A stretch of DNA of 64,000 nt from the NCBI GenBank assembly GCA_963977005.1, contig CAXBMQ010000012.1, positions 4,307 to 68,306 on the forward strand, given 5' to 3'. The notes under the pieces are model-generated. The model searched no databases, was not told where the DNA came from, and saw only the letters and a list, made by a program, of their open reading frames with translations. The DNA comes from an uncultured Rhodospirillaceae bacterium. GTDB lineage: Bacteria > Pseudomonadota > Alphaproteobacteria > MPNO01 > UBA830. Of this stretch, positions 4,674 to 50,614 are shown one piece after another. The position numbers and the translations under genes were made by a program. Position 1 is the first letter of the stretch; each line of letters opens with the position of its first letter.

Positions 4674-6110
4674 ATGACGGCCAATTCTTCACCCCTGGGG
4701 TCCACGCCCCCGCGATCCAGGGCGTTCTGGCGTCTCGAGCTCGCGGAAATGACCCGGCTCGGCGCACCCATCGTTTTCACCCAGCTTGCCTGGGTCGCCA
4801 TGCTGACCACCGATACCGCCATGATCGGCCGTCTCGGGCCCGACGCCCTTGCCGGTGCATCGCTCAGCCTGATGGTATTCTTCATGACGTGGGTGTTCTG
4901 CTTCGGCGTCGTGATGGCGACGGCGGCGCTTGCGTCGCAGGCTTTCGGTGCACGAAAGCCGCGGATGATCCGTCGCGTGATCCGGCAGGGGTTCTGGGTA
5001 ACCGTCATCCTCACGGTGCCGGCGATGATCGCATTCCAGTACACGCCCGACCTGCTCCGCGTGCTGTCCCAACCGCCCGAAATTCTCCCCCATGCAGATG
5101 CCTATATGAGCACCCTGATGTGGAGCCTGATGCCGAGTATCGGGTATGCGGTGGTCCGTAATTTTATCTCGTCGCTGAACCGTCCGGCGCCGGCGTTATG
5201 GGTGATGTTGGCGGGTGTGCCGCTGAACGGATTGCTCGACTACGCGCTGATCTTCGGGAATTTCGGTTTGCCCCGGCTGGAACTCGTCGGTGCGGGCATT
5301 GCGACATCGATAATCAACTGGCTGATGTTTCTTGTCCTGCTCGCCATCGCCGTCTTCGCGAAGCCTTTCCGGCGTTATGGCATTCTCGGACGTTTCTGGC
5401 GGCCGGACTGGTTCCAGTTCCGCCAGATATTCCGGATCGGCCTGCCGATTGCCGCCATGAGTATGCTTGAAGCGGGGTTCTTTTTCAGTTCGATCTTTAT
5501 CGTCGGGCAGTTCGGCGCGCATGCTATCGCGGCAACGATGATCGCGCTGCAGATGCCGCACATTACTTTTATGGTGCCGATGGGCCTGGGTCAGGCGGCG
5601 ACTGTCCGCGTCGGGCAGGCCGTCGGGCGACGCGACGTTCGCGGCGCCTATCGATCCGGGTGGGTGGCCCTTTCGATTGCGCTCGCCTTCATGTCGGTCA
5701 TGACCGCTATCGTGCTGGCAATTCCGCAAACCTTCGCATCCATCTATCTCGACAGCAGTCATCCGGATAGTTCTGCAGTCCTGGCACTTGCCGCATCCTA
5801 TCTGATCTATGCCGCGTTCTTTCAGGCGGCAGACGGTATACAGGCCGTCGCTGCCGGGGCGCTGCGGGGACTCAGCGACACCACCTGGCCTATGGTGATC
5901 GCCGCCTTCAGCTATTGGGGAATCGGCCTGACCAGCGGGCTGGCGCTGGCATTCTGGGGCGGTTTCGAGGCCGCCGGTCTATGGATGGGCTTCGTCCTTG
6001 GCCTGTCGAGCGCCGCGTTTCTGCTCACCCGGCGTTTCCGGCACCTTCAGCGGCGCGGCTATATCCCGGCGGTGCAGGAGAGCGACACGGGCCCTGTCGC
6101 CGCCGCGTGA
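4674..6110 (+). CDS. MATE family multidrug/toxin efflux transporter
   Basis: 478 aa polytopic membrane protein with two MatE repeats (12 predicted TM segments). Typical NorM-like N terminus. Confidence 0.85.
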   Translation: MTANSSPLGSTPPRSRAFWRLELAEMTRLGAPIVFTQLAWVAMLTTDTAMIGRLGPDALAGASLSLMVFFMTWVFCFGVVMATAALASQAFGARKPRMIRRVIRQGFWVTVILTVPAMIAFQYTPDLLRVLSQPPEILPHADAYMSTLMWSLMPSIGYAVVRNFISSLNRPAPALWVMLAGVPLNGLLDYALIFGNFGLPRLELVGAGIATSIINWLMFLVLLAIAVFAKPFRRYGILGRFWRPDWFQFRQIFRIGLPIAAMSMLEAGFFFSSIFIVGQFGAHAIAATMIALQMPHITFMVPMGLGQAATVRVGQAVGRRDVRGAYRSGWVALSIALAFMSVMTAIVLAIPQTFASIYLDSSHPDSSAVLALAASYLIYAAFFQAADGIQAVAAGALRGLSDTTWPMVIAAFSYWGIGLTSGLALAFWGGFEAAGLWMGFVLGLSSAAFLLTRRFRHLQRRGYIPAVQESDTGPVAAA

Positions 6111-6111
6111 G

Positions 6112-7947
6112 CTACCGACGGCCGAAAAGCCGTTCTATATCCGACAGGTCCAGCTCGACATATGTCGGACGGCCATGATTGCACTGCCCGGAATGGGGCG
6201 TAACCTCCATCTCCCGCAGCAGGGCGTTCATTTCCTCGGAGGTCAGCCGACGTCCGGCACGAACGCTGCCATGGCATGCCATGGTCGAACACACGTCTTC
6301 GAGCCGTTCCTTCAGGGCAAGCCCGGCACCGAATTCTTCGAGATCGTCCGCAAGGTCCCGCAGAAGCCCTGTCACGTCGGACTGGCCGAGTAACGCAGGC
6401 ACTTCGCGGACGACCACCGCCCCGGGGCCGAATTTTTCGATCGACAACCCCAGTTCCTCGAACTCGGCAGCGCGTTCGCACAACCGGTCGACGGCGGCTT
6501 CGTCCATCTCGACGACCTCCGGGATCAAAAGGCCCTGGCGCCTGGCACCGCCCTCGGCAAGCGCGGTCTTCATGCGTTCGTAAACCAGTCTTTCATGCGC
6601 TGCATGCTGATCGACGATGACGATACCGGTTTCGGTCTGGGCGACGATATATGTCTCGTGCACCTGCGCACGGGCCGCGCCGAGGGGGAAGTTCGTTGCC
6701 GGCGACGCTTGCGGCTGGGCATATCCGTCCGTTGCAACCCGTGCAGACGGCGCATCGAAGGCATTCAGCACGCCTGTAGATGGCGGCGCCTGATAGGCCG
6801 CCGCAATTTCCGCCAGTTCGCCCGGCAATGCCGATGACTGACGCCAGGGCATTACCCCCCCACCGGGAACGCCTCCCGTCGCTGCGCCCGCATGGCCGGC
6901 GTGAAAAGCACCCAGCGCCGCCGCGGCGACCGTCGTCGACGCCTTGTGACCGGCCGCTTCCAGCGCATGACGTAGCCCGCCGACAATCAGCCCGCGCACC
7001 AGCCCCGCGTCCTGAAACCGAACCTCGGCCTTGGCCGGATGCACGTTAACGTCAACGCATTCCGGCGGCACGTCGAGAAACAGCGCCACCATCGGGTGAC
7101 GGTTACGCGCGAGAAAATCCTGATAGGCACCGCGCACCGCCCCGACCAGCAGGCGATCCTGCACCGGGCGGCCATTGACGAACAGATACTGCGCCCGCGC
7201 GTTTCCCCGGTTCAGCGTCGGGACGCCGGCATAACCGGAGAGCCTGATACCACCGCGCTCGGCCGAGACGGCAACGGCATTATCGGCAAATTCGCGTCCC
7301 ATCACCGCCGACAGACGGTCGAGCCGCGCAGTCAGAAGGTCTCCCTGGGCGGGGCCGTAACGGAAGCGCGTCCGGTCTTCGTCGGCCAGCGAGAACGCGA
7401 TCTCCGGATGCGCCATCGCAAGCCGCTTGATCGCATCGGCAGCATGATCGACTTCGGTCCGCGGCGTCTTGAGGAATTTCAGCCGCGCAGGCGTCGCGTA
7501 GAACAGGTCGCGGACTTCGATACGCGTGCCGTTCCCGAGCGCCGCCGGCTTTGGCGGCTCCCTGCGCCCGCCTTCGATCAGGATGGCGTATGCCTCGGAT
7601 GCGCCGGCCGCACGACTGGTGATAGACAGCCGCGAGACGGCACCGATAGACGGCAACGCTTCTCCCCGAAAGCCGAGGGTACGGATATCGACAAGATCGT
7701 CGTCCGGCAGCTTGGAGGTCGCATGACGTTCAACAGCGAGTTCAAGCTCGTCCGCCGTCATCCCGCACCCGTCATCCGTGACCGAGATCAGGAGTCTGCC
7801 ACCGTCCTCAAGAACGACGTCGATGTGACGCGCTCCCGCATCGATAGCGTTCTCGACGAGTTCCTTCACTGCAGCGGCCGGCCGTTCGATCACCTCGCCT
7901 GCCGCTATACGGTTGACCAGCGTTTCGGGCAGACGGCGAAGGGTCAA
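6112..7947 (-). CDS. mutL: DNA mismatch repair protein MutL
   Basis: GHKL ATPase N terminus ([29 protein letters not shown]), 611 aa, C-terminal dimerisation domain. Confidence 0.92.
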
Positions 7948-21827: not shown

Positions 21828-21968
21828 AGGTGTTCTCCGTATTTCTGAAGGGCGTTTCTATCGGAAGCGGATGAGAAATGACAATCTTTATCGGGGTGTT
21901 TGCCGGCATATCCGTCCCCATCAGATAGGACACAAAATGCCGCTTGACGATGTTCCTTTTTCTAACTA

Positions 21969-21983
21969 GAACAAAACAAGAAC
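21969..21983 (+). promoter_or_regulatory. LexA (SOS) box of alphaproteobacterial type, GAAC-N7-GAAC, upstream of imuA
   Basis: gaacaaaacaagaac, with an overlapping gaacatttgttc palindrome, about 20 to 30 nt upstream of the imuA start. Confidence 0.7.
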
Positions 21984-22001: not shown

Positions 22002-23048
22002 TTGGAACATACGATGCCGAGGCCCTTCGGAAGCGCCAGGAACCGCTCTCTTCCCTCTCAGAAACGGGAAAACGGGGCGATTCCGGGTACGCTTCCGTCC
22101 CGTCTTGCGGCCGCCCATGCTCTCATGGAACACCCAACCAGTCACCCGGTCAGCAACCCGACCACTCTGGAACAGCTGAAGGCACAGATCCGCCAGCTTG
22201 AAGGATTTGGCGGCACGCTGACCGGGACCAAACAACAGCCCCTGCCCTTCGGCGTCGCCGCGATAGACGATCATCTGCCCGGCGGCGGGCTGGCAAGGGG
22301 TGCGCTGCATGAAGTATTCGCCGCGGATGCCGGTATTGCCACGGCGTTCTGCGCCCTGCTGGCAGGCCGCCTGGCGAACGATACCGAAAACCACGCAATT
22401 CTCTGGTGCGAACGTCCCTGGGCACTCGATGCCGGCGCCCTTTACGGCCCTGCCCTGCTCCAGTTCGGTATTGATCCGGCACGCATGATTCTGGTCCGCC
22501 CCCGCCGCGATGCGGATGCGCTCTGGGCGATGGAAGAAGGACTGCACTGCGGCCGGGTCGCCGCCGTCATCGGGGAAATAACGGACATGTCCCTCACTGC
22601 CAGCCGGCGGCTGCAGCTTGCCGCCGAAGAAACCGGCGTAACCGCCCTGATGCTGCGCCCGAAAACGGACAGGCCCGCTCCCAGCGCCGCGGCCACCCGC
22701 TGGCGGCTCGATGCAGTGGAACATGAAGCCCGAAACACACCGTCTGCCGTGCAGGCGAACGACAATAAGCAAACACGATCAGACCCTCCGGGCCCTGATC
22801 TCATCGGCCCTCCGGGCCTGGACATTGACGGCCCTCCGGGCCTGGACATTGACGGCCCTCCGGGCCTGAACATTGACGGCCCTCCGGGCCTGGGCGCTGC
22901 GCGGTGGCGGGCGGAACTTTTCCGCTGCCGTGGCGGGGCCGCTGCGAACTGGATGATGGAGTGGAACGATGAAACGGGTAATTTCTCTCTGGCTGCCGAA
23001 ATTTGCGACCGACCGGCTGTGCCGTCTGCGGCAAGACTGGCTGGATAG
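22002..23048 (+). CDS. imuA: ImuA (SulA/RecA-fold protein of the translesion mutagenesis cassette) with an extended repeat-containing C-terminal tail
   Basis: RecA-like core (LHEVFAADAGIATAFCALLAGRL; HAILWCERPWALD; GRVAAVIGE). First gene of the imuA-imuB-dnaE2 cassette. Likely ATG start at 22014. Confidence 0.8.
   Translation: MEHTMPRPFGSARNRSLPSQKRENGAIPGTLPSRLAAAHALMEHPTSHPVSNPTTLEQLKAQIRQLEGFGGTLTGTKQQPLPFGVAAIDDHLPGGGLARGALHEVFAADAGIATAFCALLAGRLANDTENHAILWCERPWALDAGALYGPALLQFGIDPARMILVRPRRDADALWAMEEGLHCGRVAAVIGEITDMSLTASRRLQLAAEETGVTALMLRPKTDRPAPSAAATRWRLDAVEHEARNTPSAVQANDNKQTRSDPPGPDLIGPPGLDIDGPPGLDIDGPPGLNIDGPPGLGAARWRAELFRCRGGAAANWMMEWNDETGNFSLAAEICDRPAVPSAARLAG
22784..22895 (+). repeat. 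In-frame 24-bp tandem repeat inside the imuA 3' region
   Basis: About 4.5 copies of ggccctccgggcctggacattgac (units at 22806, 22830 and 22854, plus partial copies). Encodes (GPPGLD/NID)n. Confidence 0.85.
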
Positions 23049-24633
23049 TCCGCTTGCACTGGTCGATGAGACCGGCGGCAAGCTGATACTCCATGCGGTC
23101 AATACGGTCGCCGAACAGGCCGGTATCCGCACGGGCATGACCCTCGCCGATGCCCGCGCGATCCTGCCTGACCTGCAAACCAGCGAAGCCGATTTCGACG
23201 CCGAAAACCGCGCACTGACCCGGCTCAGCGACTGGTGCGGCCGGTTCACCCCGTGGACGGCGCCGGACGAAGACGCCAGCGGCGCGGCGTTTGGCGGTGC
23301 CGGCTCGGTCTGGCTCGACGTCACCGGCTGCGCCCATCTGTTCGGAGGCGAAGACGCGCTGATGCGCGATATCGTCGCCCGGCTCGATGCGCTCGGCTAC
23401 ACGGCCTATGCCGCGATTGCAGACACTCCGGGCGCCGCCTGGGCGGCCGCCCGCCACACCGCCTACAAGCGCAAGCGCTGGACAAGCATTGGCAGGGGCC
23501 GCGCGCGCGATGCAATCGCCGCCATGCCGGTCGCCGGGCTGCGTCTCGCCCCGGCAACCGTCGCCGGACTTCAGGCCGTGGGTCTGCGGCGTATCGGCGA
23601 TCTGATGCCGATCCCGCGCACCGCGCTTGTCGACCGTTTCGGCAGCGACGTCGCCGATCGTCTCGACCAGGCACTGGGCGACCGGCCGGAACCGGTCTCG
23701 CCGCTGGCCGTGACCAGCCCGTGGCACGCCCGCCGGGCTTTTGCGGAACCGATCGGCCGGACCGAAGATATCGCCGATGCTGTCCGGGAACTTGCCCGCG
23801 ATCTTGCCGCCACGCTGGAGGCCGACGGGATCGGCGCCCGCCGCCTGACCCTCGTCTTCTATCATCCGGACGGCACGATAGCCCGGCTGGAGGCCGGTAC
23901 CAGCCGGGCCAGCCGCAATGCCGCGCATCTTGCCCGGTTGTTCACCGCCAAGCTTGACCGCATCGAAGCGGCTTTCGGCATCGATGCCATCACCCTGACC
24001 GCGACAACCAGCGAAAAACTCTCGCCCCGGCAGGCAGCGCTCGACAGGCGCAGCGAACAGGACGATGCCGGCGTCGCCGAACTGGCCGACAGGCTCAGCA
24101 ACCGCCTCGGCGGCGAAAACGTCGTACAGATGACCCTGCAGGAAAGCCATATCCCCGAGCGGGCGATCGTCACGTCGCCCGCCACCGCACGAACCCGTCC
24201 GGCACCGGCCGCTCCCTGGCGCGCCAGCCCCCCCCTGAAACGGCCGCTTTCCCGGCCCCGTCCTCTTCGGCTCCTCCCCCGGCCCGAAGAGGTGGAGGCC
24301 ATTGCACCGGTGCCGGACGATCCCCCCGTCATGTTCCGCTGGCGCAAACAGGTTTTCCGCATCGAACATGCCGACGGGCCGGAACGCATCGCCCCCGAAT
24401 GGTGGCATGACGGGCTCGGCCTGACGGAGGGCGAACGGGACGGCCTGGAAAGCGATGCGTCAGACCGCGAAGAAGCCGATGCGTCTCAGGCATCGTCCGC
24501 CTCTATCCAGGACAATATCCGCGACTATTACCGCATCGAAGACCGCCGCGGCCGCCGTTTCTGGGTCTACCGCGAAGGTGTCTACAGATCCGGCGCGCAG
24601 CCCCACTGGTACGTCCACGGCGTCTTCGGATGA
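22969..24633 (+). CDS. imuB: ImuB (Y-family polymerase-like, catalytically inactive scaffold)
   Basis: UmuC/DinB-like N terminus MKRVISLWLPKFATDRL, 554 aa. Its start overlaps imuA in another frame. Confidence 0.85.
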   Translation: MKRVISLWLPKFATDRLCRLRQDWLDSPLALVDETGGKLILHAVNTVAEQAGIRTGMTLADARAILPDLQTSEADFDAENRALTRLSDWCGRFTPWTAPDEDASGAAFGGAGSVWLDVTGCAHLFGGEDALMRDIVARLDALGYTAYAAIADTPGAAWAAARHTAYKRKRWTSIGRGRARDAIAAMPVAGLRLAPATVAGLQAVGLRRIGDLMPIPRTALVDRFGSDVADRLDQALGDRPEPVSPLAVTSPWHARRAFAEPIGRTEDIADAVRELARDLAATLEADGIGARRLTLVFYHPDGTIARLEAGTSRASRNAAHLARLFTAKLDRIEAAFGIDAITLTATTSEKLSPRQAALDRRSEQDDAGVAELADRLSNRLGGENVVQMTLQESHIPERAIVTSPATARTRPAPAAPWRASPPLKRPLSRPRPLRLLPRPEEVEAIAPVPDDPPVMFRWRKQVFRIEHADGPERIAPEWWHDGLGLTEGERDGLESDASDREEADASQASSASIQDNIRDYYRIEDRRGRRFWVYREGVYRSGAQPHWYVHGVFG

Positions 24634-25211
24634 TCGAAGAAAATAACAGGAGAACAGAAATGAAAACGAATACCCTTACCCCCCTTGCTGCCCAAGAGCC
24701 TGAAGCCGGACCCGAAGCCGAAGCAGGTCTCTATTTCTTCGCCATATACACACATCGCCAGGAGACACGTCTGGGCAGGGTATCCCGGCGGGGGACAAGA
24801 CCCAGCGCCCTCGGCCGGACGGTGGAAGCGCACTGGCATAACCTGTCGCGTATCTTCCCCGATATCCGGCTTGATGCCTTTACCCTGATGCCCGACCGCA
24901 TCCACGGGATCATCGAAATCGAGGAAGGCGCCCCGCACGGCATCGCCGCTATCCTGCGGACCTTCAAATCGTTCTCTGCACGCGAGATCAACAAGCTGCA
25001 GCAGACTCCCGGAAACATGATCTGGCAACAGGCGCATGACGAACGCATCCTGCACGACGCCGCCGATCTGGAGAAGATGCAGACACATATCATGACCGCC
25101 CCCGCGCGCTGGCGGGACGGCCGCCGACAACGCCTCAACCCGGTATCCCGCCGGAGATCAGGCGCTTTCCTGAACTGGTTCCTGCCATCCTTCCTTGCCG
25201 CTGAACATTAG
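24630..25211 (+). CDS. Y1 HuH 'IS200-like transposase' fold protein (PF01797-like) with degenerate catalytic motifs
   Basis: FTLMPDRIHGII aligns to lMPNHVHLLi (HuH becomes R-I-H). ILRTFKSFSAREIN..IWQQAHDERILHDA..MQTHIMTAPAR aligns to the RAYT/IS200 core, with the catalytic Y replaced by H. The ATG overlaps the imuB stop (ATGA). Confidence 0.6.
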   Translation: MIEENNRRTEMKTNTLTPLAAQEPEAGPEAEAGLYFFAIYTHRQETRLGRVSRRGTRPSALGRTVEAHWHNLSRIFPDIRLDAFTLMPDRIHGIIEIEEGAPHGIAAILRTFKSFSAREINKLQQTPGNMIWQQAHDERILHDAADLEKMQTHIMTAPARWRDGRRQRLNPVSRRRSGAFLNWFLPSFLAAEH

Positions 25212-25279
25212 GCCCGGAGCTTTTTCAAAGCGGGTGCCGGATTTCCCCACCGCGTTCGGACTGTCCCTCATACATATCC

Positions 25280-28200
25280 ATGTCCCTTTATGCAGAACTC
25301 GAAGTCACCACTAATTTCTCCTTTCTGCGAAGTGCCTCGCACCCGGCGGAGATGGCGAAAACGGCAGCGGCGCTTGGCCTGGCGGCAGTGGCGGTGGCGG
25401 ATCGCAACACTCTGGCAGGGGTTGTCCGCACTCACCAGGCGGCGAAGCAGGCGGGGATAAAGCTTGTCGTCGGCGCCCGGCTCGACCTGCGAGATGCGCC
25501 GTCTCTTTTGTGTTTTCCGACCGACAGGGCGGCTTACGGGCGGCTGTCGAGACTGATTACCCTGGGCCGCCGACGCGCGGCGAAGGGCGATTGCGAAATT
25601 TATCTCGAAGACGTCTTCGCCCATTCGGGCGGCCAGCTTTTTATCTCCCTGCCGCCCCGGGAATGGGAGCGAAAACCAGACACCGCCTACACGGCTCACC
25701 TGCACCGCCTGCGCGAGGTTCTGGGACGGGATGTCTGGCTCGCTGCCCGCTGCCGTTATCACGGTGATGACGCCGTCCGGCTCTGGGCGCTTGCCCAGCT
25801 TGCGGTCGATGTGAACATCCCGATGGTCGCCACCAACGACGTACGGATGCATGTCCCCGACCGCAAACCCCTGATGGACGTGCTTACCTGCATCCGCGAA
25901 CACTGCAGCGTCGATCAGGCCGGGTTCCGCCTCATGGCCAATGCCGAACGTCACTTCAAACCGCCGGCGGAAATGGCGCGGCTGTTCCGCCGTCATCCCG
26001 AAGCCGTCATGCAGACGATGGCAATCGCCGAACGCTGTACGTTTTCGCTCGACGAGCTGCGTTACGAATACCCCGATGACGAAGCCCCGCCCGGCACCAC
26101 ACCGCACGCGGAACTGACACGCCTCGCCCGGGAAGGCTCGAAAACCCGTTACCCTGACGGCGTGCCGCCGAAAGTCAGCGCCCAGATCGACTACGAACTG
26201 AAACTCATCGACCAGCTGAATTACGCTCCCTATTTCCTCACCGTTCACGATATCGTCCGGTTTGCACGTTCGCAGGGTATTCTCTGCCAGGGACGCGGAT
26301 CGGCGGCGAATTCGACTGTCTGCTACTGCCTCGGCATCACGGCCATAAACCCTGCCGAAATCGACCTGCTGTTCGAACGTTTCGTTTCTGCCGAACGCAA
26401 CGAGCCGCCGGATATCGACGTCGATTTCGAGCATGAGCGGCGCGAGGAGGTCATCCAGTACATCTACGCGAAATACGGCCGCGAGCGCGCCGGGCTGGCC
26501 GCGACCGTCATTCATTACCGCACGCGCATGGCCGTCCGCGAAGTCGGCAAGGCCATGGGACTGACCGAAGACACCATCGCGACGCTGGTCGCCACCGTAT
26601 GGGGCTGGCGGTCAGACGGGCTTGAACGAAAGCATATCCGCGAAGCGGGACTCGACCCCGACGATCCGCGCCTGTCACTTGCCATCCGCCTCGCCGCCGA
26701 ACTGACGGGTTTTCCCCGGCACCTGTCACAGCATGTCGGCGGCTTTGTGATTACCCGCGGGCCGTTATCCGAACTTGTCCCCATCGCCAATGCCGCGATG
26801 GAAGACCGCACGACCATCGAGTGGGACAAGGACGACCTGGATGCGCTTGGCATCCTCAAGATAGATATCCTCGCACTGGGCATGCTGAGCTGTATCCGCA
26901 AGGGGTTCGACCTGCTGGAACGGCATTACGGCCGCAAGGTCGATCTCGCCACCGTACCCACGGGCGATCCCGCGGTGTACGACATGCTGTGCGAGGCCGA
27001 TTCCATCGGCGTGTTCCAGGTCGAAAGCCGTGCACAGATGACCATGCTGCCCCGGCTGAAGCCGCGCACGTTCTACGACCTGGTCATCGAGGTTGCGATC
27101 GTGCGGCCCGGCCCGATCCAGGGCGACATGGTGCACCCCTATCTGCGGCGGCGGAACGGCGAGGAGGCCGTCGACTTTCCGTCAGAGGAACTGCGCGAGG
27201 TACTGGCGAAAACCCACGGCGTGCCGCTTTTCCAGGAACAGGCGATGAAAATCGCCATTGTCGCTGCCGGATTCACCCCGTCGGAAGCGGATCAGTTGCG
27301 CCGCGCCATGGCCACCTTCCGGCATACCGGCACGATCCACACTTTCGAGGAAAAACTGATCGAGGGGATGGTCGCCAAGGGTTACGAGCGCGATTTTGCC
27401 GAGCGCTGTTTCCGCCAGATCGAAGGGTTCGGCGATTACGGCTTCCCCGAAAGCCATGCGGCAAGCTTCGCCCTGCTGGTCTACGTCTCCGCCTGGCTGA
27501 AATGTCACTATCCGGACGTGTTTGCCGCTGCCATCCTGAACAGCCAGCCGATGGGCTTCTACGCCCCGGCCCAGCTTGTCCGCGATGCCCGCCAGCACGG
27601 CGTCGAGATACGGCCCGTCGATGTGAACCACAGCGATTGGGACAACACGCTTGAAACCGGGACGGCGAAACCCGGAAAACAGGACTATCGCGCGCTCCGG
27701 CTCGGTTTCCGCCAGATCAAGGGATTTCACGAAGACAGCGCCGCCGCCCTGATCGATGCCCGCACGGCGCTGGGCCGGGATTTTACCGATCCGGCGGAAA
27801 TCAACCGGATGGCCCGGCTGACAGGTCCCGTACTGGAACGCCTTGCGCGGGCCGATGCCTATGCCTCGATGAAACTGCGGCGGCGCGACGCCTTATGGGC
27901 CGTACGCGCCCTGCCGCCGGCACCGCTCCCCCTGTTCGCAGCCGGGGAGAACCGCGAGGATCCGGAGGTTACGCTGCCGGCCATGGCGATTGGCGAAGAG
28001 GTCACGCACGATTACGCGGCATTGCGCCTGTCCCTTAAAACGCACCCGCTGGCGCTGCTGCGCGACGAACTGGCAGCGGCAGGCGCCGTCCCTGCCGACA
28101 GCCTGCTGCACGCAAAAGACGGCAAGCGTGTTACCGTCGCCGGGTTGGCCCTTGTACGCCAGCGCCCGGGCACGGCCAGCGGCGTTATCTTCATCACGCT

Positions 28201-28531
28201 GGAGGACGAGACCGGGGTGGCCAATCTCGTCGTCTGGCCCAAAACGTTCGAGCGTTTCCGCCCCGTCGTGATGGCCGCCCGTTTGATCAGGGTAACGGGA
28301 AAGCTGCAGCGCGAAGGCATCGTCACCCATGTCATCGCCGACCACCTGGAAGACATGACTCACCGCCTGCGCGCACTTGCCGGCCCGGATTTCAAATCCG
28401 ACGACAGGCGCAAAAACGCAAATGCGGCCTATGAAAACAATCTCGCCCGTGCCGACGAGGTCAAAAGCCCTCTCCCCGAAAGCCGCCAGAGCGCATCGCG
28501 CAAACTGTTCCCGTCACGGGATTTTCACTGA
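25280..28531 (+). CDS. dnaE2: Error-prone DNA polymerase DnaE2 (ImuC)
   Basis: 1083 aa PolIIIalpha-like protein: PHP domain N terminus (TNFSFLRSASHP), polymerase core, OB fold. It follows imuA-imuB. Confidence 0.93.
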   Translation: MSLYAELEVTTNFSFLRSASHPAEMAKTAAALGLAAVAVADRNTLAGVVRTHQAAKQAGIKLVVGARLDLRDAPSLLCFPTDRAAYGRLSRLITLGRRRAAKGDCEIYLEDVFAHSGGQLFISLPPREWERKPDTAYTAHLHRLREVLGRDVWLAARCRYHGDDAVRLWALAQLAVDVNIPMVATNDVRMHVPDRKPLMDVLTCIREHCSVDQAGFRLMANAERHFKPPAEMARLFRRHPEAVMQTMAIAERCTFSLDELRYEYPDDEAPPGTTPHAELTRLAREGSKTRYPDGVPPKVSAQIDYELKLIDQLNYAPYFLTVHDIVRFARSQGILCQGRGSAANSTVCYCLGITAINPAEIDLLFERFVSAERNEPPDIDVDFEHERREEVIQYIYAKYGRERAGLAATVIHYRTRMAVREVGKAMGLTEDTIATLVATVWGWRSDGLERKHIREAGLDPDDPRLSLAIRLAAELTGFPRHLSQHVGGFVITRGPLSELVPIANAAMEDRTTIEWDKDDLDALGILKIDILALGMLSCIRKGFDLLERHYGRKVDLATVPTGDPAVYDMLCEADSIGVFQVESRAQMTMLPRLKPRTFYDLVIEVAIVRPGPIQGDMVHPYLRRRNGEEAVDFPSEELREVLAKTHGVPLFQEQAMKIAIVAAGFTPSEADQLRRAMATFRHTGTIHTFEEKLIEGMVAKGYERDFAERCFRQIEGFGDYGFPESHAASFALLVYVSAWLKCHYPDVFAAAILNSQPMGFYAPAQLVRDARQHGVEIRPVDVNHSDWDNTLETGTAKPGKQDYRALRLGFRQIKGFHEDSAAALIDARTALGRDFTDPAEINRMARLTGPVLERLARADAYASMKLRRRDALWAVRALPPAPLPLFAAGENREDPEVTLPAMAIGEEVTHDYAALRLSLKTHPLALLRDELAAAGAVPADSLLHAKDGKRVTVAGLALVRQRPGTASGVIFITLEDETGVANLVVWPKTFERFRPVVMAARLIRVTGKLQREGIVTHVIADHLEDMTHRLRALAGPDFKSDDRRKNANAAYENNLARADEVKSPLPESRQSASRKLFPSRDFH

Positions 28532-47840: not shown

Positions 47841-47894
47841 GCGTAAGTAACTATACGGTTATTTCAGGCTAGGACCCGGCATCCGGCCTGTCAA
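47841..47894 (+). promoter_or_regulatory. Conserved 54-bp promoter/operator block, copy 1, containing the palindrome TAACT-N4-GGTTA
   Basis: gcgtaagtaactatacggttatttcaggctaggacccggcatccggcctgtcaa. About 87% identical to copy 2 at 50561. Lies in the divergent region between the binding-protein and permease genes. Confidence 0.6.
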
Positions 47895-50560: not shown

Positions 50561-50614
50561 GCGTAAGTAACTAAACAGTTATTTCAGGCTAGGGGCCGGG
50601 CAATCGCCTGTCAA
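50561..50614 (+). promoter_or_regulatory. Conserved 54-bp promoter/operator block, copy 2, with the perfect palindrome TAACT-N4-AGTTA
   Basis: gcgtaagtaactaaacagttatttcaggctaggggccgggcaatcgcctgtcaa. Lies in the divergent region between the MetE-like and tetR genes. Confidence 0.6.

Follow-up and report, generated by a model that had tools for sequence, protein, structure and literature searches.

The region analysed here is a stretch of 64,000 nucleotides (the window) from contig CAXBMQ010000012.1 of an uncultured Rhodospirillaceae bacterium. It carries a compact cassette of four genes on the same strand, in the order imuA-imuB-X-dnaE2, with a LexA box ahead of them. X, the open reading frame (ORF) under study, occupies 24660..25211 on the + strand. 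Homology, predicted fold, ratios of non-synonymous to synonymous substitution (dN/dS) and a comparison of start sites identify its 183-residue product as a catalytically degenerate Y1 HUH protein of the RAYT/IS200-like type. Within a single group of uncultured marine alphaproteobacteria, X is a candidate additional component of the operon for DNA-damage mutagenesis. Public collections contain the exact 183-residue protein unnamed or as 'hypothetical'; relatives are annotated 'hypothetical protein' or, at JGI, 'putative transposase' or 'RayT'.

The initial annotation placed an ORF of 193 residues between imuB and dnaE2, at 24630-25211 (+). The ORF was confirmed, including the overlap (ATGA) between its ATG and the TGA of imuB. 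The translational coupling proposed from that overlap did not survive comparison with orthologous loci: the overlap is not conserved and is missing in eight of 19 loci, and ATG 24630 was rejected as the conserved start of X. The junctions that lack it read GGCTGA (L055, L066, L010), GGATAA followed by an in-frame stop (L004, L057, L058) or GGATAG (L049, L050). Across the 19 loci an overlapping ATG is confined to those with GGA-TGA at the end of imuB, and on this comparison it is a by-product of a terminal glycine codon, GGA, followed by TGA. All 19 loci have a further ATG downstream, 26-70 nucleotides past the imuB stop (26 in the window). In most of them AGGAG, AAGGAA or AAGGGA precedes it by 6-9 nucleotides; in L008 the Shine-Dalgarno-type site (CAAGGAAAATAGAAATG) is spaced further from the ATG than in other loci. 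The window has the Shine-Dalgarno sequence AGGAG at 24648..24652 (+), 7 nucleotides before ATG 24660. Most database orthologues begin at MKTN, and the exact 183-residue product is recorded by the NCBI/ENA gene callers. The start of X is placed at ATG 24660 because this ATG is conserved throughout the loci inspected, a Shine-Dalgarno sequence precedes it in most, and the database records agree. The gene is most likely 24660-25211, encoding 183 residues, with its own ribosome-binding site and close-packed with imuB.

The similarity to Y1 transposases claimed for X is borne out by profile searches, by alignment with TnpA_REP and by structure prediction. What does not stand is significance for X alone against Pfam PF01797 (Y1_Tnp), where E=0.0079 and 16.8 bits fall short of the gathering score of 23. 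The best sequence family match is NCBIfam REP_Tyr_transpos (NF047646), with E=2.3e-11 and 43.8 bits, under the curated cut-off of 80. Among the nearest relatives outside the cassette, only P0034 exceeds that cut-off (85.6 bits). Weak matches to PF01797 were obtained for 27 of 28 members of the X family, the best at 1e-05, and a family profile searched against 1.84 billion representatives brings up 18,793 superfamily clusters. A direct phmmer search of X against PDB sequences gave nothing; only a profile search matched, with X and its nearest relatives reaching Escherichia coli TnpA_REP (4er8, E=1.7e-5) and ISDra2 TnpA (1.9e-5). The AlphaFold2 model of X has a predicted local distance difference test (pLDDT) score of 83-93 in its core and displays the HUH ferredoxin-like fold with an αD helix. 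Foldseek comparison of this model with the PDB returned IS200, IS608 or ISDra2 TnpA or RAYT structures for all of the top 30 matches (probability 1.00, E 1.8e-06 to 4.4e-05), headed by 2f4f, 2vih, 2vjv and 2xm3 (E ~1e-6). Because the weak family matches to PF01797, the reach of the profile, its match to the PDB and the predicted fold agree, X is securely assigned, on sequence profiles and modelled structure, as a true Y1 HUH (RAYT/IS200-like) homologue despite sub-threshold scores.

The catalytic motifs of this protein are eroded. Residues of X are numbered from ATG 24660, and those of 4er8 were counted on the alignment, in agreement with the published Y115 and N119 (PMC6006769, PMC3479197). 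The two proteins align in register, with the WQPRFWEH strand of 4er8 matching WQQAHDER of X. The degenerate HuH motif R80-I81-H82 (24897..24905, +; codons CGC-ATC-CAC) aligns to H59-M-H61 of TnpA_REP. The former catalytic helix reads H143-I-M-T-A147-P148 for Y-x-x-x-N-P (25086..25103, +) and aligns to Y115-IYI-N119-P. Earlier readings of the HuH as R-I-H and of the tyrosine position as His are correct by this alignment, and the Asn ligand is replaced too, by Ala. Published class definitions treat Y-x-x-x-N-P, with Asn as the third metal ligand, as the mark of class 2 (PMC6006769). The Y---NP context would therefore make the ancestor of X a class 2 (RAYT-like) protein.

The stages of this erosion are visible across the family. 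Relatives outside the cassette have H-u-H, with Tyr and Asn at the nucleophile and ligand positions. P0028 and P0175 combine H-L-H and Tyr with Ser at the ligand position. Their close relative P0176 has R-L-H, Arg at the Tyr position and Gly at the ligand position, and the His-to-Arg change and Tyr loss appear from these sequences to have arisen there in parallel and independently. Basal X sequences (P0018, P0020, P0024, P0026, L013) have H-I/V-H and Tyr, with Ser or Gly for Asn; P0021, P0022 and P0023 have H-V-H, with His for Tyr and Ala for Asn. The crown clade comprises 23 sequences, including that of the window, and reads R-I/L-H. The Arg is fixed (23/23), and the first HuH position is His in all nine other X sequences and in three outgroups. 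The crown Tyr position holds His in seven sequences, Leu in eight, Gln in four, Phe in two and Tyr in two, and the ligand position Ala in 22 and Gly in one. Position 143, that of the former Tyr, ranks second in variability among 134 core positions of the crown clade, which has no alternative Tyr on the αD helix. Position 147 is Ala, Ser or Gly in every X sequence and never Asn. All class 1-3 Y1 sequences are described with HuH and Y motifs, and an Asn or Gln metal ligand is described as essential in these classes (PMC6006769). X has probably ceased to work as a transposase or nuclease.

Other parts of the protein are held constant. The most conserved segment is FKSFSAREINK in helix αC (24966..24998, +), with invariant K103, R108 and N111 and an X-specific invariant K112. 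The last of these aligns with K82 of TnpA_REP, which contacts the hairpin and is reported as critical for binding it (PMC3479197). H58, K112 and H126 (24831-24833, 24993-24995 and 25035-25037) are invariant in 32/32 X-family sequences, whereas canonical relatives of the RAYT-like type have other residues there; a new functional site may have been gained at these positions after capture into the cassette. Because catalytic sites are eroded while other residues are invariant, X appears to be kept for something other than catalysis. The C-terminal tail (...LNWL.PSFLA..H) is conserved but disordered in the model, with pLDDT below 50. A β-clamp motif considered in this tail (SLNWL.PSF) is only loosely QLxLF-like, is not conserved across sub-families and is not claimed.

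Selection was estimated as dN/dS by the Nei-Gojobori method across nine lineages. Values for X are 0.17-0.37, in pairs with synonymous divergence (dS) up to 1.4; two basal pairs involving the indel-prone L008 give 0.39 and 0.52. The neighbouring genes give 0.13-0.28 (imuB), 0.04-0.11 (dnaE2) and, over divergent pairs with the misaligned L012 left out, 0.18-0.41 (imuA). Lineages that have lost the catalytic residues and those that keep them show similar ratios for X. The reading frame is intact in all orthologues except two truncated entries, P0025 and P0027, the latter from the indel-ridden L129. The low dN/dS and the intact frame make X a functional protein-coding gene under purifying selection, constrained to a degree similar to its neighbours. 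The possibility that P0027/L129 is a decaying copy of X was rejected, as the whole contig is full of split genes and is probably an indel-prone assembly. On the L129 and L008 contigs imuA, imuB, X and unrelated neighbours are all split; both are probably indel-prone assemblies and were excluded from inferences.

The X family is small and confined to one genomic position. A word-indexed search found 27 relatives at 51-97% identity, which form three clusters at 50% clustering. In the profile search the best family cluster scores 297 bits; a sharp fall to 159 bits (P0028) follows, and beyond it the general superfamily begins. P0028 and P0175 are the closest outgroup, at 36% identity to X, and also lie between imuB and dnaE2. 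Context was read for P0001, P0012, P0021, P0024, P0020, P0028, P0175, L009-L013, L052-L063, L066 and L073. X stands between imuB and dnaE2 in all of the approximately 35 orthologous loci with readable context. The host range is narrow: uncultured marine alphaproteobacteria, represented by metagenome-assembled genomes labelled UBA830, Rhodospirillaceae or Alphaproteobacteria. A metagenome scan with an ImuB alignment yielded 77 loci. X is present in all loci whose ImuB is at least 80% identical and in the P0028 type (71-72%); a sister group (66-78%) has a short imuB-dnaE2 gap or a vapBC pair.

A neighbour-joining tree of ImuB plus DnaE2 groups crown and basal X loci with 92% bootstrap, the same set with the X-less L064/65 with 98%, and these together with the P0028 type with 76%. 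The X tree is congruent with this tree, and X is therefore read as vertically inherited. In the simplest history X was acquired once, passed down vertically and lost at least once, in L064/65. A search for a deletion scar of X in the L064 gap gave nothing significant (z=1.0-2.4), so the loss is read from the tree alone. As L064/65 retain the cassette without X, the gene is not essential to it.

The imuB-dnaE2 spacer has also been entered by other elements. It contains vapBC pairs, each a ribbon-helix-helix antitoxin (MGTITVRNLDD...) with a PIN toxin (M.VVIDASIAIKWF...), in sister loci (L067 5635-6359, L068, L069, L125 285-758) and in a distant one (L085 3385-4325). L072, also of the sister group, carries a fused vapB'-'vapC deletion remnant at 5635-5835, and the distant L091 a BrnT/BrnA-like pair on the opposite strand at 5584-6237. 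Small selfish modules appear to land at this junction repeatedly, and X may first have reached the spacer as a selfish insertion.

Signs of present mobility were sought around X. There are no flanking hairpins within ~80 nucleotides on either side (fold z-scores -0.12 to 0.40 against shuffled sequence) and no significant inverted repeats around the gene. The 64-kb window contains no second copy of X and no REP-like repeat or palindrome family (REP, repetitive extragenic palindromic). IS200-type ends and a REP association were accordingly rejected as candidates for this locus. A defence-system or phage origin was likewise rejected, the PADLOC and PHROGs libraries giving no matches; plasmid-borne relatives are at best 27% identical. 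The GC content of X (60.7%) is close to that of the window (60.4%), so X is not a recent arrival. Within 64 kb, the initial annotation was thus right that terminal hairpins and second copies are absent. Its view of a domesticated gene, as opposed to a recent insertion sequence, agrees with a single copy in the window, no ends, a fixed position, congruent trees and purifying selection.

The remaining genes of the cassette are recognizable by family. The imuA ORF opens with TTG at 22002, and the gene is placed at 22014..23048 (+) from a conserved ATG at 22014, whose context ACGATGCC is conserved among related loci. Its product matches NCBIfam ImuA_translesion at E=2.7e-26, under the curated cut-off. 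A 24-nucleotide tandem repeat at 22784-22903 (4-5 copies) encodes (GPPGLDID)n toward the C-terminal part of ImuA, and ImuA length varies between related loci, with 348 residues in the window versus 312 in L050. The imuA and imuB genes overlap by 80 nucleotides (22969-23048) in different frames, an arrangement conserved in related loci such as L004 and L009. The product of imuB (22969..24633, +) is a Y-family polymerase homologue with an ImuB-C tail (Pfam IMS 1.3e-13, IMS_C 8.4e-07; DUF6504, the ImuB-C match, very weak), 75-89% identical to ImuB of related loci in the alignment. Just before its C-terminal domain, residues ~490-515 (window ~24440-24510) form a variable acidic Ser-/Ala-rich insert, enlarged in L058 by an (Ala-Asn)n run; the insert is likely to be a disordered linker of variable length.

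The error-prone C-family polymerase gene dnaE2 (imuC) lies at 25280..28531 (+), with Pfam matches to PHP, DNA_pol3_alpha (1.3e-89), finger, HHH_6 and OB. The 68-nucleotide spacer between X and dnaE2 (25212..25279, +) is without hairpin or terminator; in the crown clade X is followed by a spacer of fixed length, 71 nucleotides. Basal lineages have dnaE2 starting inside X, with an overlap of ~20 nucleotides at the 3' end of X. In the window dnaE2 has no recognizable Shine-Dalgarno sequence; a C-rich leader, TTCCACC..TCGGA...CATG, is conserved ahead of it, also in the X-less L064.

A putative cassette promoter was read from the sequence at 21944..21972 (+), with a -35 element TTGACG (21944-21949), a 17-nucleotide spacer and a -10-like TAGAAC (21967-21972). 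A strict sigma-70 scan gave no score to this site. The TTGACG...TAGAAC layout recurs upstream of imuA in eight loci with the region covered, and only its TAGAAC end is visible in L050. Overlapping the -10 region is a pattern match to a LexA (SOS) box of the alphaproteobacterial type GAAC-N7-GAAC, GAACAAAACAAGAAC (21969..21983, +). It is kept at equal distance from imuA in nine loci, the divergent L013 and L050 among them. This match to a known consensus suggests that LexA controls the cassette. A scan of the window found no terminator-like site in the imuB-X or X-dnaE2 junction. Co-expression of X with the SOS cassette is well supported, because the LexA box is conserved in nine loci, no terminator separates the genes, and X and dnaE2 overlap in basal lineages. 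Elsewhere in the window, two 54-nucleotide copies (47841-47894 and 50561-50614, 81% identical) contain the near-palindrome TAACTATACGGTTA and may be a common operator or promoter of two nearby transcription units. Rfam gave no family matches anywhere in the 64-kb window, this repeat pair included.

These observations can be assembled into a model. A class 2 RAYT/TnpA_REP-like (Y---NP) transposase gene would have entered the imuB-dnaE2 spacer once, in an ancestor of the uncultured marine alphaproteobacterial clade. It would since have passed down by vertical descent, forming the fourth cistron in an imuA-imuB-X-dnaE2 operon under LexA control. Catalysis would have been lost, with the Asn ligand gone from all members and, in the crown clade, Arg fixed and the Tyr position drifting. 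The HUH fold, helix αC and the X-specific H58, K112 and H126 are nevertheless maintained by purifying selection. The product would act without catalysis, by binding DNA that is structured or single-stranded, or by using its disordered C-terminal tail to bind a partner protein. It would be made only during the SOS response, when single-stranded DNA is abundant, alongside the ImuA-ImuB-DnaE2 mutasome. Taken whole, this account of a captured class 2 gene turned operon cistron with a non-catalytic binding role has about an even chance of being right. Of the mechanisms for X, non-catalytic binding is most likely and best supported by the sequences and the model, since the HUH fold and the αC surface are preserved and the active site is dead.

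X may bind single-stranded DNA, and a role in translesion synthesis is plausible by analogy with the behaviour of Y1 transposases. Y1 transposases act on lagging-strand single-stranded DNA. For TnpA_IS608, binding to fork-like DNA and to the β clamp is reported, a connection with replication (PMC6006769). A more specific scheme may be put forward tentatively: an exapted, nuclease-dead Y1 HUH domain that recognizes hairpin or fork-like single-stranded DNA, in the manner of its transposase ancestors on the template of the lagging strand, might recruit, retain or restrain the error-prone polymerase at particular DNA structures, giving structure-targeted SOS mutagenesis. As a description of what X does, this scheme is doubtful.

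Several observations weigh against the proposed binding role beside the mutasome. X is dispensable for the cassette: L064/65 (ImuB 79%) are nested in the X-bearing clade and have a 114-nucleotide imuB-dnaE2 gap without X, and most cassettes never had the gene. In more than 50 distant cassettes (ImuB 35-45%) the gaps are mostly 8-80 nucleotides and none contains a Y1 gene. The vapBC or BrnT/A-like modules occupy the same spacer in relatives, and the site alone implies no mutasome function. The amino-acid sequence of X evolves faster than that of ImuB or DnaE2, and its C-terminal tail is not conserved between X sub-families. Basal X sequences still have H-u-H and Tyr, and the ancestral selected function may have been catalytic.

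The dispensability of X and the intact motifs of basal members would also suit a protein timed by the SOS response and unrelated to translesion synthesis, for which the operon is only an expression platform. Such a protein could bind or regulate REP- or IS200-like hairpin elements in trans, as the ancestral activity of members with H-u-H and Tyr would allow, or antagonize related mobile elements when single-stranded DNA is exposed. The evidence for selection, fold and catalytic loss fits this alternative equally, and RAYTs provide a precedent, being known as single-copy, vertically inherited, host-retained transposases (PMC5581495). Every family member with readable context is, however, fixed at the imuB-dnaE2 position and none lies elsewhere. 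The window yielded no REP-like repeat family, and the tight imuB-X-dnaE2 packing, including the dnaE2 overlap, has been maintained over dS>1. An SOS-timed function of this kind is possible, on the unlikely side. Less favour is due to the idea that a selfish insertion left X behind as a hitchhiking relic, lacking protein-level function and persisting because clean deletion is rare or disturbs dnaE2 expression. The recurrent occupation of the spacer (vapBC in L067-69, L125 and L085, the L072 remnant, the BrnT/A-like pair in L091) and the survival of the cassette in L064/65 after loss of X speak for it. So do the decayed catalytic residues and the overlap of the basal X 3' end with the dnaE2 start, which places part of the ORF under constraint from dnaE2. 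A relic would nevertheless not be expected to show, in pairs with dS up to 1.4, dN/dS of 0.17-0.37 along the entire protein, or to lack frameshifts and stops in ~30 distinct sequences (the truncated P0025 and P0027 aside). The decay stays within the catalytic positions instead of extending across the protein, and H58, K112 and H126 are new X-specific invariant residues. A mere relic is thus quite improbable.

Continued activity through an unconventional site, in which R-u-H and new His residues work with another nucleophile, would make X an active HUH nuclease or transposase. Basal and P0028-type members keep H-u-H and Tyr, and the invariant H58 and H126 might conceivably make up a new metal site. 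The crown clade, however, has no other αD Tyr, and the equivalent position is His, Gln, Leu, Phe or Tyr. The Asn/Gln ligand described as essential in classes 1-3 (PMC6006769) is missing in all X, and no ends, repeats or extra copies were found in the window. An active enzyme is highly improbable. The captured, non-catalytic binding protein is retained as the working model.

On either outcome, X offers a view of a Y1 protein apparently caught mid-inactivation: from HuH and Tyr in basal members to a crown clade with Arg fixed and the nucleophile position drifting, with selection throughout. Should X act together with ImuB and DnaE2, it would become the first accessory factor in a bacterial mutasome to derive from a mobile element, and would naturally connect the recognition of single-stranded DNA structure with error-prone synthesis. 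If it has no link to these proteins, the junction would still be a hotspot for the capture of selfish genes (vapBC, BrnT/A-like modules and a Y1 gene), one such capture having been retained over long evolutionary time. Two things bound its significance: the host range is narrow and uncultured, and the cassette can function without X.

The cassette itself resembles the canonical imuA-imuB-dnaE2 (imuABC) cassettes of Caulobacter, Pseudomonas and Mycobacterium in its three genes, their order and a GAAC-N7-GAAC LexA box. It differs in a fourth, Y1-derived cistron between imuB and dnaE2. Two systematic surveys of Y-family and DnaE2 modules (PMC6511836; PMC12926913, which distinguishes 11 module types) do not contain the words transposase or HUH. 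Among papers combining imuB, dnaE2 and transposase, none concerns such an arrangement by its title and abstract. Other mutasome accessory subunits are UmuD, YolD/YqjX, standalone ImuB-C as well as SRAP-like proteins (PMC6511836, PMC12926913). Like X, all of them are small and are encoded together with a module for an error-prone polymerase, and they are proposed as its regulators or assemblers. Their fold and origin are unrelated to those of X, which derives from a mobile element.

The TnpA proteins of the IS200/IS605 family (IS608, ISDra2, IS200) share the HUH ferredoxin-like fold with X. In contrast to them, X lacks subterminal hairpins, a tnpB partner, multiple copies and the Y---Q motif, and its PF01797 match is below threshold. 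Known RAYTs keep their catalytic residues and are stand-alone genes beside REP elements. They are the established example of domesticated Y1 transposases (PMC5581495, PMC2817692). The fold of RAYT/TnpA_REP (4er8), the WQ..E(H/R) strand and the helix αC motif are common to both, and X too is single-copy (in the 64-kb window), vertically inherited and host-retained. X differs in having R-I-H for HuH and H---AP for Y---NP, so that catalysis is not expected, in lacking flanking REP/REPIN sequences and in scoring below the curated cut-off of the family. RAYTs stand alone, whereas X is an internal cistron of a DNA-damage operon; what is new here is an apparently inactivated, operon-embedded RAYT-like protein.

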